Source: a virus
Lineage: Duplodnaviria > Heunggongvirae > Uroviricota > Caudoviricetes
Virus record (IMG/VR): IMGVR_UViG_2802429225_000007
Span: 1 to 31,354 of that record
Length of the DNA stretch: 31,354 nucleotides
Reading direction: 5' to 3' (one strand)
Of the stretch, positions 17,100 to 21,424 are shown piece by piece. How positions within the stretch are numbered: position 1 is the stretch's first letter; each line of letters begins with the position of its first letter. Both the position numbers and the translations under genes were made by a program. The notes beneath the pieces were generated by a model. That model made no database searches, was not told where the DNA came from, and was given only the letters and a program-made list of their open reading frames with translations.

Positions 17100-17185
17100 C
17101 GCAAAATATACACAATTATGTCAATTGACAACTTATAGTTCCCACTAGTTAGCATTAAGATTTTTACAATGAGGAATAATCAATG

Positions 17186-17242
17186 TCCGCTCCTGGCACA
17201 GAGTGGACGAACAACTGAAGACCCGCTGTGAGCGAGAAACAG
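17186..17242 (+). repeat. ~60-bp palindromic intergenic element, copy A (most diverged)
   Basis: aligns with copies B and C, core CTGAAG-N-CCGCTGTGAGCGAG. Confidence 0.55.
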
Positions 17243-17395
17243 ACATCACAACTCACAAGGATTATACGCAGTTTGTTATCCAAACATACGGGTGCCAAGT
17301 GTTATAATCCGGCACTAACAGCATGATGCTTGGAAGTGCATTTAAATGTAAAATGATAGTGTACTCTGACTGAAGCCTGGTAAAAAGGAACTGAT

Positions 17396-18763
17396 ATGTA
17401 CAACAACCTCTATGCCCTCACAGAAAGCCTTTTCTGGGTTGATCGACTTTTAGATCAGGAATATGAAAATATTGGATTGAATGAATTGCTAATTGAGTTA
17501 GATGAATATAATAAAAGAATAGATTCACTGATTATCGAGCAAGCAAATTCTGTACAGGAGTCTCGGCTAAATGTTTACATGGCGGGAAATCGTAATATTG
17601 AAAGGTATAAGAGTGGACTGTTTTCAATGGACAGAGTCATTCTTGATGATGTTCTGTATTCATTGAGCCTACGATACAGAGTGAGTCTAACAGAAAATGC
17701 ATTTGAAAAAATTATTGTAAGCGATAGAAAAGAGAAGGTTGAACATCTCAGGAAGGAAATTGCTAGATTTATCAGGTTTGCTAAAGAAAACTTTGATCTT
17801 ATCCGTGGTGAGTTTATCGTTTTTGTACGAAGCGAATCTTCTATTAAAGATTCGGAGAGGGGCAATGGAATTTTAGACGATAACTCTGATGCTAATTTTA
17901 TATATCGATATCTCCCTCCTAATATTGCCCGTCTTTATGAAAATAGACTATCCGTAAAGAATATAGAACGTCTAGGTAACACAAATAAAATTCGGTTATT
18001 AAACAAAAATGTTTTATCGAATGAAATTATGTTGGAAATTAAAGACTGTGAAAGTTTATATACAAATGGATATATGTATCAACATATAAAAAATGCCATT
18101 GATAATGATGATGGCTCCATATCTATGGAGCTTGTCATGGGAAATCATAGCGGAAAAAAAAGTTATGAACGGTGGGTGCAGGGAGCAAAAAACCGTACGG
18201 TTCTCTTTCATTATAAAAACCTTATTACTGACCTTAACCAAGCGCATTCATGTAGAGCATCCCTGGGTGCATATTGCCCGTTTCATGGAGAGATTCTTCG
18301 TAAACTTGATCAAAAGAATGAAGTTCAGAGGGTTAAACTCTCTATAGACGTTCCATTCTTAGAGGGACTGACTCCAAGTGAACTCTACAAAATTAGAACT
18401 GACTACGAGCCGAGTTTTAATTCTTTCCGCTCTGTACTACGTGAAGCTGCGTATGATATAGAAGCAGAAAGTGATTCATATAAGAGACAACTAATAAATC
18501 AACATTTTGTCGAGCGGGTGTGGGATGAAGGATTGACAGATATTGAGCAAAAAATACAAGCCTATAAGCGGAAGAGTAAAAAAGAACTTTTTCTTAACAG
18601 TGTGCCTTCATTGATAGGTTTTATTGGTGCACCAAATCCAGTGTCGTTGGCTACAGGAGCTTTTACGATTCTAAAAGATGTCTTTAATATTACAAGCCAT
18701 TCTTCAGAAATAAAGAGCCACCCTTCATATTTCCTTCTCATGATGTCAAAAGCCAAAAAATAA
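17396..18763 (+). CDS. hypothetical protein, AT-rich cargo gene (candidate defence/abortive-infection protein)
   Basis: 455-aa ORF with AAGGA RBS; strongly AT-rich relative to the prophage backbone; no recognised domain, one weak Rx4H motif (NRTVLFH). Confidence 0.6.
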   Translation: MYNNLYALTESLFWVDRLLDQEYENIGLNELLIELDEYNKRIDSLIIEQANSVQESRLNVYMAGNRNIERYKSGLFSMDRVILDDVLYSLSLRYRVSLTENAFEKIIVSDRKEKVEHLRKEIARFIRFAKENFDLIRGEFIVFVRSESSIKDSERGNGILDDNSDANFIYRYLPPNIARLYENRLSVKNIERLGNTNKIRLLNKNVLSNEIMLEIKDCESLYTNGYMYQHIKNAIDNDDGSISMELVMGNHSGKKSYERWVQGAKNRTVLFHYKNLITDLNQAHSCRASLGAYCPFHGEILRKLDQKNEVQRVKLSIDVPFLEGLTPSELYKIRTDYEPSFNSFRSVLREAAYDIEAESDSYKRQLINQHFVERVWDEGLTDIEQKIQAYKRKSKKELFLNSVPSLIGFIGAPNPVSLATGAFTILKDVFNITSHSSEIKSHPSYFLLMMSKAKK

Positions 18764-18890
18764 ACCTTATGACTGAGGCAGTAGAAAATAAAGTGAAAAT
18801 ATATTCACTTAAGAAAAAAAGTTCTAAAGGGACATAATTAGATTAACCCAGTGACCTGTTCCCCTTGAATCAACATAGGCTGTTGTTAGC

Positions 18891-18957
18891 TACTTCCGCT
18901 TCTGACACGAAGCGGACAAAAAACTGAAGGTCCGCTGTGAGCGAGGAGCGGAAGTTG
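18891..18957 (+). repeat. ~60-bp palindromic intergenic element, copy B
   Basis: CTTCCGC...GCGGAAG terminal inverted repeat, internal hairpin CCGCTTC-tgacac-GAAGCGG, 3' core CCGCTGTGAGCGAGGAGCGGAAGTT shared with copy C. Confidence 0.6.
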
Positions 18958-19099
18958 ATTTTATTGAGAGTAAAACAGATCTATAGTAAATGGTCTTGTT
19001 ATGTAGGGGATTTACGATAATTTTACTACCAAGGTCGTTAAAAATTCATATGAAATATCAACGATAGTGACCTATTTTTCATAAGGCCACTATATGAAT

Positions 19100-19762
19100 C
19101 TATTGTTCTATTTTAATTTTATTTAACGTTATAGGGGCTGGGTTATAGCTAGGTATATATAATATCTCACTCCCTAGCTTGCGCTCTTTTATATTCACTT
19201 CTTTAGCGACAAGGTTACCGTCATACAACCTAATAATCACGTAGTCTTTAGATTGATCATGAAAGTAACTAAATTCTTTTTTTAATGACGCTTGTTGTAA
19301 ACCAATTAAGAAACTAAATGTCATTATGGCAATAAGGGGAAGGGTTGCGGACCAAATTAAATAACTTGGATTACGTTTATGATTTTTAACAATTTTGTGT
19401 ATAATATAAGTAACTGTTGCTATCGATAAACTTAAAACGAAAAAACCACCATATTCAGTCTTATGTCTATAAGACTGAACAATAAAAACAATCATGATAA
19501 AAACTGTAACTGCAGTAACTTTAACTGCTTTTACTTTACTTTCAGGCCATGGAGTAAAAAACATCAACATAACACAAATTATATTAAAAAATAAATATGA
19601 CATACCCACGAATAAAAATTTAGAATCTAACGTTATAAACTCCATAGGATAATCAAAATGATATGCATAGCCATATTCAAATGAAATTGCAGACATATAA
19701 GATAGAACAGTTATTGCCAATATTAGCAAGGCTTCCTTGCTTTTTATAAAGTCAATTATCAT
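19100..19762 (-). CDS. polytopic membrane protein, AT-rich cargo gene
   Basis: 220 aa with ~5 hydrophobic helices and a soluble C-terminal tail; very AT-rich; weak RBS. Confidence 0.55.
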   Translation of the reverse strand: MIIDFIKSKEALLILAITVLSYMSAISFEYGYAYHFDYPMEFITLDSKFLFVGMSYLFFNIICVMLMFFTPWPESKVKAVKVTAVTVFIMIVFIVQSYRHKTEYGGFFVLSLSIATVTYIIHKIVKNHKRNPSYLIWSATLPLIAIMTFSFLIGLQQASLKKEFSYFHDQSKDYVIIRLYDGNLVAKEVNIKERKLGSEILYIPSYNPAPITLNKIKIEQ

Positions 19763-20086
19763 GATATTTGTTTTTTAATGAATAAAATAATCACTTACCA
19801 GACAGTTAATCTTCTTAATTGTCATTGTGTTCAGTGAACCCCGAATTTTTCTCAGTTCTTCTGAAGAAGTCCTCATGTATATGATAACAACCAAAAAAAT
19901 TTTTTTCACTAATTATACTAAAATCTATGAAGAATCAGCAGTGTGAAGCAGGGAGAATCTCTAACAAGAGACGCCGTCATTTTGTAAATTTCCCGGCAAA
20001 CCAGATCATCTGCTTTTAGACATAGGATTCAATGTGCTATTACGGCGAGCTGTTCCCACAGATTGATGGAGATAGATGTTAGCAAT

Positions 20087-20157
20087 GCCCGCTTTTGGTA
20101 CGAAGCGGGCAAGCTAACTGAGTTGAAAGTTCGCTGTGAGCGAGGAGCGGAAGTTCG
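20087..20157 (+). repeat. ~60-bp palindromic intergenic element, copy C
   Basis: hairpin GCCCGCTT-ttggtac-GAAGCGGGC plus identical 3' core CGCTGTGAGCGAGGAGCGGAAGTT. Confidence 0.6.
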
Positions 20158-20240
20158 TAATTGTTCTCGCAACTAGGGTAGCTAAAAGACACGGCAGGCA
20201 AATGTCTACATGTAGGATACACTTGCTATTATCAAGAATT

Positions 20241-21019
20241 TTAGTCCTGAAGCATTTTAACTTTCTTCTCATGTTTTTTATATTCGCCATTTATCCATTC
20301 AGGTTCTTCCCGAATAGCTGAGCGCATACAGTATGTTGGGATATCATTCCAGAAAGCTGTAATCGCATCTGCAAACTCTATAAACTGTGTTTCTGTAACC
20401 TCAAGTTGCTCATGACGTAGACTAAATCTGTAGCCTCTTGGAATATTGATATCCTGATAATACTCAGGATGCGCGACGGAAAGCACCCGATGGGCATGGC
20501 CATCACCGTGCTTATAAACATTAACCACTTGGCGACAGGCATCGATTTTTTCGTAATAAGCCTTGCTGGTGATATCCATCCCAATCCATTCTAGAATTTC
20601 AATTAGCCTTGGGAAGCTAATGTCCCAGATCATCGATGTTATGGATTTAGCGTCGAGCCAATGGCTGAATTCTCTGATACACTTCTCTCGAAGTTCCTTG
20701 TCGAACTGATGAAACATTCCTGCTGTCAGAGCAAGGGAAACCGTATTTTTCATATCACTGAGAGCAATCCAATGTGAAATTCCTTCATCATGAGCCTGTT
20801 CACAGATAGCCCCTTCGTCGTCATAATCGGGGTCAAAACGCTTACCGGCGGCCTCATAGTAATCTTGTTCTCTCTGCCTGGCTTCAGCTTCAAGATCAGA
20901 ATCGCTAAACTGCGAAAATAGACGCTTTCTGGCTTCAGCAACATAAAAATTGTGTTTGTCGAGGAAGTAAGACCGATCAATGGTTGCAAAATAAAAAGTG
21001 AAAAATCTTTGTTGCTCAT
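20241..21019 (-). CDS. hypothetical cargo protein (~259 aa if corrected); frame interrupted by a 1-nt deletion in a T5 run near the 5' end
   Basis: ATG 21019 with GAGGGAG RBS; after MSNKD the plausible frame is -1 (…FFTFYFATIDRSYFLDK… continuing in frame into the 170-aa track ORF 20241-20753); A5 run at 21001-21005 on the plus strand. Confidence 0.5.
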
Positions 21020-21424
21020 GGGGATCTCCCTCGTTTTGTCAGTTGTACAAGCCCCTGGAAGTAGGCTACTAATAAAGAAAAAATTACCTTTGAATAACTG
21101 TGCAAGATAGCAGTACGCCTAAAAGTAGTGCAAGTATCCCAACCAGGATAACGATGCGTTTTCAAATATCTGACTTAACGCTTGCGATATCCGCTCTGGC
21201 AACAAAGTGGACTGTCAGATTAAATTTGTCTTCACGCCATAGATGTGTCAGCTCATATCTTATCTAATACACACAAGATTCTCTCATTCTTAGAGAATTA
21301 ATCTTTTAAGGGTGGGTGTTGACGTTAGAACAAAAGAATAGATATTTTTGAAGCATATAATATGAGCTATAACCATAGAACGCATATAAAAGCTTACGGT
21401 GTGGTCTTATAATTTGGCACAAAT

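Follow-up and report, generated by a model that had tools for sequence, protein, structure and literature searches.

The subject of this analysis is a variable gene region, together with a palindromic element that recurs within it, in the viral stretch IMGVR_UViG_2802429225_000007 (positions 1-31,354). The window is this whole stretch of 31,354 nt, and coordinates refer to it unless a comparison locus is named. It is a lambdoid-type prophage whose integration site is tRNA-Ser/mtfA, and it is 99.2% identical to the prophages of Escherichia coli E24377A, SE11 and four other genomes. An original prediction, made from the sequence alone, had singled out three unrecognised genes beside two nuclease genes as a candidate defence or abortive-infection module, and had noted a sharp shift to AT-rich DNA after the GIY-YIG gene. 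The shift is evident: the guanine plus cytosine (GC) content of successive 500-nt segments over 17001-20000 is 0.38, 0.34, 0.36, 0.37, 0.30 and 0.30, with 0.43 over 20001-21000 and 0.37 over 21001-21500, against ~0.45-0.55 in the rest of the prophage. The three open reading frames (ORFs) are also present as described, encoding proteins of 455 amino acids (aa), 220 aa and, frameshifted, ~259 aa; a Kyte-Doolittle scan finds zero hydrophobic segments in the first and ~5 in the second, in keeping with a soluble and a polytopic membrane protein. Between the genes lie copies of one palindromic element, the left and right halves of which we term hp1 and hp2. The features of the region are these:

14188-14209, + strand: left half of the repeat (hp1) at the left hotspot boundary; pattern match with 2 mismatches
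14257-14817, - strand: 186-aa ORF with an N-terminal lipobox-like, lipoprotein-type signal (LSGC), hotspot cargo; from the ORF list
14949-16184, - strand: 411-aa HNH nuclease gene, hotspot cargo; Pfam HNH_2 2.6e-8, PADLOC HNH 6e-5, phrog_23050
16296-17099, - strand: PD-T4-3/CMoRE GIY-YIG gene; PADLOC PD-T4-3 7.9e-138, full length
17175-17251, + strand: element copy 1 (hp1, spacer, hp2); repeat search, nhmmer 6.7e-17
17396-18763, + strand: 455-aa soluble protein, candidate single-gene defence cargo; ORF list, homologues, contexts
18882-18963, + strand: element copy 2, with an optional 5' extension from ~18849; repeat search, nhmmer
19100-19762, - strand: 220-aa membrane protein with ~5 transmembrane segments and a ~60-aa soluble tail; ORF list, Kyte-Doolittle scan
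20075-20162, + strand: element copy 3, with an optional 5' extension from ~20042; repeat search, nhmmer
20241-21019, - strand: gene of the 259-aa protein (HEPN-like fold), a pseudogene in the window, split into 170 + 89 aa
21190-21213, + strand: candidate hp1 half-site in degenerate form, TCCGCTCTGGCAACAAAGTGGAC, close to where the cargo ends on the right; tentative, read by eye, missed by nhmmer and by the pattern search
21435-21456, + strand: terminator-like hairpin with T-run, immediately ahead of the resuming conserved backbone; promoter/terminator scan
21529-22170, + strand: conserved 213-aa backbone ORF (phrog_5215), the right hotspot flank, followed by DUF1367, DUF1364 and Q

These genes occupy the early-right arm of the prophage, after the replication genes, ORF6N and an LprI-family gene, and before the 213-aa ORF (phrog_5215), DUF1367, DUF1364 and the gene for antiterminator Q. 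A comparison of the same position in related prophages reveals different cargo. Between the same flanks EC958 carries two hypothetical genes and an ImmA/IrrE peptidase gene; S42 carries a different nuclease (annotated as GIY-YIG; Pfam T5orf172/MUG113) with ImmA/IrrE, and ETEC1738 a GmrSD-like DUF262 protein with other genes. The LprI left flank is common to E24377A, EC958 and S42, while the phrog_5215/DUF1367 right flank is common to these three and to ETEC1738; the right flank from ~21451 recurs in 421 E. coli genomes. Only six of 5426 E. coli genomes contain the region as a whole, counted as at least 80% of 17100-21500 at a single location, and alignment of the window to E24377A shows 37 differences in 4.4 kb. 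The intact E24377A alleles of the three genes have the accessions WP_000282641, WP_000582583 and WP_000066090. The 186-aa ORF at 14257-14817 is absent from this position in EC958, S42 and ETEC1738, and has no match in Pfam, NCBIfam, PHROGs or PADLOC. Given that gene content differs between the same conserved flanks, the segment from ~14.2 to 21.45 kb (~7 kb) is a true variable cargo hotspot, of which the AT-rich DNA from 17.1 to 21.5 kb is the distal half; the original view of these genes as compositionally foreign cargo is thereby borne out. The promoter/terminator scan of the region was uninformative (21 promoter-like sites against 16 expected).

Both nuclease neighbours are as first described. 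The GIY-YIG gene matches PADLOC model PDLC04031 over residues 11-265 (model positions 1-254 of 256) and Pfam LEM-3_GIY-YIG at 7e-13; the gene beside the AT-rich island is the known defence gene PD-T4-3/CMoRE, characterised as a modification-dependent type IV restriction enzyme specific for DNA containing 5-hydroxymethylcytosine or its glucosylated form (PMC12923530). Among the hotspot cargo PD-T4-3 alone has published evidence of phage resistance, and its validation supports the earlier reading of the nuclease neighbourhood as a defence setting. The hotspot and its cargo belong to a known class, the defence hotspots of prophages and their satellites, as described for P2 gpA-gpQ, P2 Z/fun and P4 psu-int (Rousset et al. 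2022, PMC9122126), where the recombination pathway of cargo exchange is left unresolved. As in those hotspots, variable cargo that includes known defence genes lies between conserved phage genes; moreover, members of the 455-aa family are found in P2 gpA-gpQ itself, and a P2-like phage carries the repeat between its genes for tail-fibre assembly and sheath. The present hotspot differs in its location in a lambdoid early-right region and in that its cargo is split by a conserved repeat, which PMC9122126 does not describe.

The AT-rich part is an array of three independent single-gene cassettes beside the two nuclease genes. Homologues of the 455-aa, 220-aa and 259-aa genes never co-occur and have different neighbours; the three genes are not conserved together as a unit across genomes. 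This distribution shows separate cassettes and not one system, and the notion of a single module, which is also at odds with the placement of the genes on different strands, does not hold. It is the repeat between them, mentioned in passing in the original prediction, that is the most informative feature of the locus.

The repeat had been described as a ~60-bp element present in each intergenic region. Three direct copies are indeed present, with a core that measures ~85 bp. The consensus is (TGTTAGCAAC)-GTCCGCTTC-TGGCAC-GAAGCGGAC-N12-18-TGAAG-GTCCGCT-GTGAGCGAGG-AGCGGA-(AGTTCGCAAT), in which hp1 is GTCCGCTTC-TGGCAC-GAAGCGGAC, the spacer is 12-18 nt, and hp2 is TGAAG-GTCCGCT-GTGAGCGAGG-AGCGGA; about one quarter of copies have an additional 5' extension. 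A pattern search of the window gave five matches, where 0.05 are expected, and the window holds in total three full copies and one half copy. A degenerate pattern for a 28-nt core, which fits all six initial copies, was found in 51 stretches of species-representative genomes from ~20 genera of Enterobacterales. The number expected by chance is ~0.02 by our own calculation from pattern degeneracy and database size. Two of the 51 stretches are not attributed to Enterobacterales and are contigs of a metagenome bin labelled Paenochrobactrum.

BLAST located the element in 678 of the 5426 E. coli genomes, always in intergenic DNA, and on 691 plasmids; copy number is one to four per genome. All six E. 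coli contexts that we examined fall in variable DNA, either of prophages or of integrative islands. In the P2-like Escherichia phage 899 the element lies between two hypothetical genes, themselves between the tail-fibre-assembly and sheath genes, a position that we take to be that of Z/fun in P2. The element is usually found at the 3' ends of genes: in ~30 of 43 cases it shares its strand with the gene upstream, and in ~32 of 45 the gene downstream runs the other way. Whatever the orientation of the genes, element copies are co-oriented in every multi-copy locus examined, among them the window (three copies), the Lelliottia plasmid (locus L081, at least six), Enterobacter (locus L026, at least four), E. 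coli T2 and E. coli Nissle. The plasmid, which is of type IncFII and comes from Lelliottia amnigena, has its six or more co-oriented elements within 7 kb (L081, 2200-9100) beside a small recombinase gene; they separate single small genes (tccZ-like, GrpB, YnfC lipoprotein and others); of the loci examined this array is the most integron-like.

Several known elements were considered as matches for the repeat and set aside. Identity with an integron attC site is not supported, as the R boxes do not fit: in an alignment of 47 copies the flanks read at best ...GCAAC / GTTCGCA, and many copies lack even that. A sigma-54 promoter was rejected on the grounds that TGGCAC is present and the -12 TTGC absent. 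Lambda/P22 nut, HK022 put, ops, dif and enterobacterial repetitive intergenic consensus (ERIC) sequences were tentatively rejected on reading of the sequences. We presume that the element also differs in sequence from repetitive extragenic palindromic (REP) sequences and the bacterial interspersed mosaic elements (BIMEs) built from them, from ERIC, and from other named enterobacterial repeats. A literature search for the core string returned nothing, as did one for the small recombinase described below; in the literature searched we found no description of either.

That recombinase is a 200-aa protein with accession WP_001305361, annotated as a site-specific integrase, which is encoded near element arrays in E. 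coli Nissle, the Lelliottia plasmid, Klebsiella grimontii, Enterobacter and Citrobacter, and is 94-98% identical among them. It consists of a tyrosine-recombinase catalytic domain only (Pfam Phage_integrase, residues 35-184), with weak similarity to XerD. The gene is part of a unit of ~700-705 bp, the left end of which is a copy of hp1 and the right end a copy of hp2, oriented to each other as they are in the 85-bp element; in locus L009, for example, hp1 (8078-8106) and hp2 (8766-8789) flank the integrase gene. The unit points the same way as the short elements at each of the five loci. The unit is found in 928 of the 5426 E. coli genomes, in one to three copies with constant ends, and an internally deleted form of ~260 bp is present in strain 25403. 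Because the ends of the unit are hp1 and hp2 in the same relative orientation, and because a deleted intermediate exists, the short element appears to be a miniature or solo-site form of the recombinase unit.

Two observations concern the unit itself. A near-perfect palindrome of 39 bp, CATACTCAAATCTCC...GGAGATTTGAGTATG, lies over the integrase start codon (L009, 8724-8762) and is kept in the copies from other genera; it could be an operator or autoregulatory site. The deleted unit of strain 25403 (L082, 4261-5701) lies in an island beside SLATT and SMODS genes, which resemble a cyclic-oligonucleotide-based anti-phage signalling system (CBASS), a further defence context.

In three independent comparisons, homology between related loci ends within the element, at its centre, in the stretch that separates hp1 from hp2. 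The window and a Moellerella prophage share the 259-aa gene, a 79-bp gap and hp2; homology then ends at the spacer, and hp1 is missing in Moellerella. Upstream of the 455-aa gene, the window and the O157-type island of TW14588 are ~95% identical from hp2 onward and ~50% identical over hp1. Finally, the prophages of E24377A, EC958 and S42 are ~100% identical from LprI through the degenerate hp1 at 14188-14209 and diverge within the first bases of the spacer, beyond which the hp2 and cargo differ from one prophage to another or are lacking. In addition, half-sites flank the cargo of Klebsiella P4-like satellites and of Moellerella, with hp2 ahead of the genes and hp1 after them.

These patterns may be explained if the elements are recombination sites or hotspots, through which cargo would enter, leave and pass between prophages, satellites, plasmids and islands. 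Since the window encodes no such recombinase, the enzyme would work in trans. An integron-like cassette mechanism is plausible: excision would yield a circle of the form hp2-gene-hp1 bearing one complete site, and the circle would then insert at another site. Such a cycle would account for the co-oriented full sites, for half-sites at insertions into site-free DNA, and for the central breakpoints. Alternative routes to the same pattern are short-homology recombination at the conserved core and cleavage at the hairpin tip. More tentatively, Enterobacterales may harbour an undescribed integron-like cassette system, made up of the ~705-bp recombinase unit and many ~85-bp miniature sites that are cut near the centre, with single-gene cargo (including anti-phage genes) moving as circles that insert in tandem in hotspots of prophages, P2/P4 elements, plasmids and islands; we think this broader proposal possible and no better than doubtful.

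Comparison with known systems is instructive. As in integrons, and in the clusters of attC sites without an integrase (CALIN), most units consist of one gene, and co-oriented imperfect palindromes of 60-140 bp lie between them; some arrays are accompanied by a tyrosine recombinase and others have no local recombinase, and boundaries fall inside the repeat, so that each unit carries parts of two sites. The differences are substantial. The recombinase here has 200 aa and a catalytic domain only, as against ~320 aa for IntI; no attI/Pc platform was found, and no intI-attI arrangement or IntI-attI-array order is present where the recombinase is nearby. The RYYYAAC/GTTRRRY boxes of attC are absent, and breakpoints are central and not at an R' box. 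Further, cassette genes point either way, and the sequence of the repeat is conserved across genera.

Miniature inverted-repeat transposable elements (MITEs) offer a second parallel: here too a longer coding unit and a short element have both inverted termini in common, intermediates with an internal deletion occur, and copies are dispersed on chromosomes, plasmids and phages. Unlike in MITEs, the enzyme encoded by the parent is a tyrosine recombinase and not a transposase of the DDE or HUH type, copies are very few, and locus comparisons break at the centre of the element instead of at its outer ends. The element and its small recombinase resemble both integrons and MITEs, but fail defining features of each. 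The classical lambdoid moron, as in HK97 and HK022, is a unit of promoter, gene and terminator. The present cassettes are likewise AT-rich, independently acquired genes between backbone genes of a lambdoid prophage; they differ in having a conserved, recombinase-linked palindrome at their junctions. Tyrosine recombinases of the FimB/FimE type, of ~200 aa, act on short inverted repeats and invert a promoter segment. They are similar in size to the recombinase reported here and likewise have a catalytic domain without a large N-terminal DNA-binding domain, whereas its sites are dispersed, co-oriented copies between cargo genes.

We turn to the cargo. The original statement that none of the three proteins belongs to a recognised family stands: none has a match in Pfam, NCBIfam or PADLOC, PHROGs was uninformative for the 455-aa and 220-aa proteins, and the sole family match of the 259-aa protein is phrog_19541, of no known function. 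A literature search on the protein accessions returned nothing. For the 455-aa protein, close relatives are limited to Enterobacterales (31 clusters), and a profile search recovered 457 representatives of ~450 aa each, so that the family is a wide and unnamed one. Neither Pfam nor PADLOC families were matched by 48 diverse members, and a profile search of PDB sequences returned nothing. Relative to E24377A an extra A at 18755 shortens the protein from 459 to 455 aa and alters its C-terminus.

The 455-aa protein had been credited with a weak HEPN-like motif, NRTVLFH. The motif is present, and among close relatives N266, H272 and Y273 are invariant and R267 nearly so; across an alignment of the wide family, however, the asparagine alone is retained. 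An AlphaFold2 model (mean predicted local distance difference 72; predicted template-modelling score 0.70; residues 396-455 disordered or helical) has no meaningful structural neighbour and no HEPN fold. With Rx4-6H lost across the wider family and no HEPN fold, HEPN membership is not supported, and the predicted fold appears to be an unrecognised one. A HEPN-like fold is found instead in the 259-aa protein.

The strongest clue to the 455-aa protein is genomic context. In Morganella P2-like prophages a homologue lies between gpA and the portal gene, which is the gpA-gpQ hotspot of PMC9122126, and is followed by a gene for a 534-aa Ser/Thr kinase; in Serratia a homologue follows an integrase gene and precedes the same kinase gene. 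The kinase (Pkinase 1e-28) is encoded ~66 bp downstream of the homologue in both the Morganella prophages and the Serratia islet (loci L006-L008, 9429-11033; L005, 9434-11038), and the two genes may represent a two-gene variant of the system. In O157-type strains the homologue lies between IS66 and a GTPase/Ag43 island core, near type I restriction-modification genes and DarT. There an adjoining gene (L002, 9544-10062) gives a sub-threshold match to HEPN_AbiU2 (4.4e-5); considered as a relative of the 259-aa protein, it proved unrelated. A 454-aa homologue in Yersinia enterocolitica (39% identity) is preceded, across a 13-bp gap, by a 363-aa gene with a weak match to DUF6364 (L076, 5896-6987), and the pair is borne on a Tn7-like element together with AbiJ- and Abi_2-like genes and ParDE. 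In Pectobacterium and Cronobacter the homologue occurs by itself in small islets.

The 220-aa protein is a near-orphan, with homologues in four clusters in total. Its Klebsiella homologue (85% identity) is found in P4-like satellites, directly after the alpha primase gene and beside a 261-aa gene; the latter was considered as a relative of the 259-aa gene and rejected as unrelated. Repeated TGTTCAC motifs flank the cargo region of these satellites (L012, 7600-7640 and 9790-9895). They are not target duplications, and resemble the alpha-protein iterons of P4 ori/crr. The likeliest role predicted for the 220-aa protein is superinfection exclusion or that of a membrane effector.

The gene of the 259-aa protein is broken by a 1-nt deletion at ~20992, near codon 10, relative to the intact E24377A allele. 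Both coding length differences from E24377A (18749-18755 and ~20992) appear to fall in A-runs; errors of sequencing, decay and slippage-prone tracts are possible explanations. The family of the intact allele comprises 86 clusters spread over Proteobacteria, with invariant residues N167-V-Y-K-H171-G, H23, R33, H104, K108 and R111. The protein has the all-alpha helical-bundle fold of HEPN proteins. Among 30 diverse family members no HEPN match was found in Pfam or PADLOC, and PDB sequences yielded none. We regard it as a divergent HEPN-fold protein and, for its fold, a candidate RNase-type abortive-infection toxin. Compared with known HEPN toxins and RNases (HepT of HEPN-MNT, Csm6, and abortive-infection proteins of the AbiU2 type), it matches none of the HEPN families by sequence, is roughly double the length of HepT, and has an invariant N-V-Y-K-H-G, the canonical Rx4-6H not being evident; no partner antitoxin gene is seen. 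Homologues occur after the tail-fibre genes at the end of the Moellerella prophage, in the leading region of a Pantoea plasmid on the strand opposite the PsiB, ArdA and KlcA genes, and on 131 plasmids overall. Homologues of each of the three genes are found in recognised variable or defence regions of other mobile elements, which supports the proposed cargo setting.

Two further observations concern the prophage as a whole. Its DUF1367 gene matches, at 22687-22720 and 22929-22962 and with 100% identity over 34 nt, annotated spacers of clustered regularly interspaced short palindromic repeats (CRISPR) in E. coli 1303, L725, LZHX12 and others; the occurrence of such spacers in other E. coli suggests that this prophage family is a natural CRISPR target. 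In E24377A the portal gene is split by ISEc62, an insertion sequence of the IS21 family (L001, 30837-34537, corresponding to the window from ~29900 onward), and that prophage copy is therefore defective. A drop in GC content at 30501-31000 suggests the same insertion in the window.

The role of the element as a recombination site has to be weighed against other accounts. Were it a structured regulatory RNA within cargo transcripts, acting in antitermination, processing or stability, then the strong folding of copies 2 and 3 (z-scores -4.9 and -3.8 on the + strand), the G-U-compatible substitutions at one hp2 pair, and the fact that every copy faces the direction of early-right transcription would find an explanation. 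Under both a two-hairpin and a long-hairpin model ~82% of alignment cells pair; covariation, however, is not above that of shuffled controls, its score being equalled in 66 and 191 of 500 shuffles, respectively. A scan of 16000-22500 against Rfam 15 gave as its sole match a chance snoRNA (E 0.46), and the orientation of the element is unrelated to that of adjacent genes. The failure of covariation to exceed the controls suggests conservation at the level of primary sequence; on present evidence the element does not appear to be an RNA motif, and we consider this account very unlikely. It is also conceivable that the element is a passive repeat, selfish or structural, of the REP or MITE type, or a terminator-like hairpin, building up between convergent genes of accessory DNA, that its breakpoints arise by short-homology recombination through RecA or phage Red/RecET and not by a dedicated site-specific system, and that the integrase is a passenger. 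This would fit the location of most copies at gene 3' ends, the low copy number per genome, and a 28-nt core so highly conserved that it could act as a homology patch, as well as the presence of the integrase at a minority of sampled loci. It fits poorly with strict co-orientation within loci regardless of gene orientation, with ends of the integrase unit that are exactly hp1 and hp2 in the same relative orientation, with the existence of deletion intermediates, and with the half-site order hp2...cargo...hp1; nor is there a T-run for an intrinsic terminator at the element. We judge passivity possible, if on the whole doubtful. Several findings nonetheless weigh against a recombination-site role. 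Neither the window nor the hotspot has a gene for such a recombinase, which lies near only five of ~51 sampled element loci, its association with the element being drawn from these five. The integron-like cycle leaves unexplained why a recombinase gene should sit between hp1 and hp2, and why the right hotspot boundary has no clear hp2. No precise presence/absence polymorphism of a cassette was found, and the central breakpoints could stem from ordinary homologous recombination at the conserved core. Homology between the 220-aa cassette and Klebsiella ends 58-88 bp short of the elements, a comparison that neither supports nor refutes the junction model.

The function of the cassettes invites similar scrutiny. 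That the three genes form one multi-gene defence or abortive-infection system might be supposed from their adjacency, their shared AT-richness, the nucleases beside them and the common strand of the 220-aa and 259-aa genes. Yet the 455-aa gene runs opposite to the other two, every gene is flanked on both sides by an intergenic element of its own, and the whole region is confined to the six genomes noted above; elsewhere the 455-aa gene occurs alone, with the Ser/Thr kinase or with the 363-aa partner, the 220-aa gene occurs beside the unrelated 261-aa gene, and the 259-aa gene occurs alone. The distribution of homologues has already largely refuted this idea, which we regard as highly improbable. 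It is less easy to decide whether the cassettes serve the host or the mobile element that carries them, as anti-defence or establishment genes, addiction toxins or lysogenic-conversion factors. The 259-aa homologue in a plasmid leading region, between DUF905/ParB/PsiB and ArdA/KlcA, and the 131 plasmids that bear the family speak for the latter, as do the zero matches of all three proteins to defence models and the prevalence of metabolic and regulatory accessory genes as neighbours of the element elsewhere. Set against this, the plasmid copy is on the strand opposite the leading-region genes, the 455-aa gene occupies the gpA-gpQ defence hotspot of P2 and an island with type I restriction-modification genes and DarT, the immediate neighbour in the window is a validated defence gene, and HEPN folds are typical of defence and toxin RNases; we consider a role other than host defence unlikely. 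A defence role must itself contend with contrary observations: none of the three genes has a known anti-phage phenotype; the PADLOC models, which date from 2023, match none of the proteins, nor any of 48 diverse relatives of the 455-aa protein or 30 of the 259-aa protein; and neither of these two proteins has a tblastn match among 50,697 deposited phage genomes. The 259-aa gene is broken in the window, its company among plasmid anti-restriction genes in Pantoea could mean a different role, and its family has as the nearest arginine upstream of H171 only R163, eight residues before it and not invariant, so that the canonical HEPN motif is not evident. In other genera the neighbours of the element are mostly accessory genes (LysR, SDR, GNAT, MFS), with some for defence (GajA, LmuB, PDC-S06/S11, Mrr).

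On the basis of context and fold, the cassettes are most likely anti-phage or exclusion cargo, which the prophage would express for its host. The explanation that best joins these observations, and which we hold with moderate confidence, is that of a variable hotspot whose cassettes are likely defence cargo and whose elements are recombination sites or hotspots for cargo exchange. The earlier interpretation is thus partly supported.

Prophage and satellite hotspots are a main source of new anti-phage systems, and the locus described here offers three uncharacterised candidates: a wide family of ~450-aa proteins of no recognisable fold, a divergent HEPN-fold family of Proteobacteria, and a near-orphan membrane protein. 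A conserved junction element tied to a small recombinase provides a testable mechanism for the swapping of cargo in such hotspots. If the mechanism holds, then searches for the element would serve in practice both to mark the limits of cargo cassettes and to find new ones.

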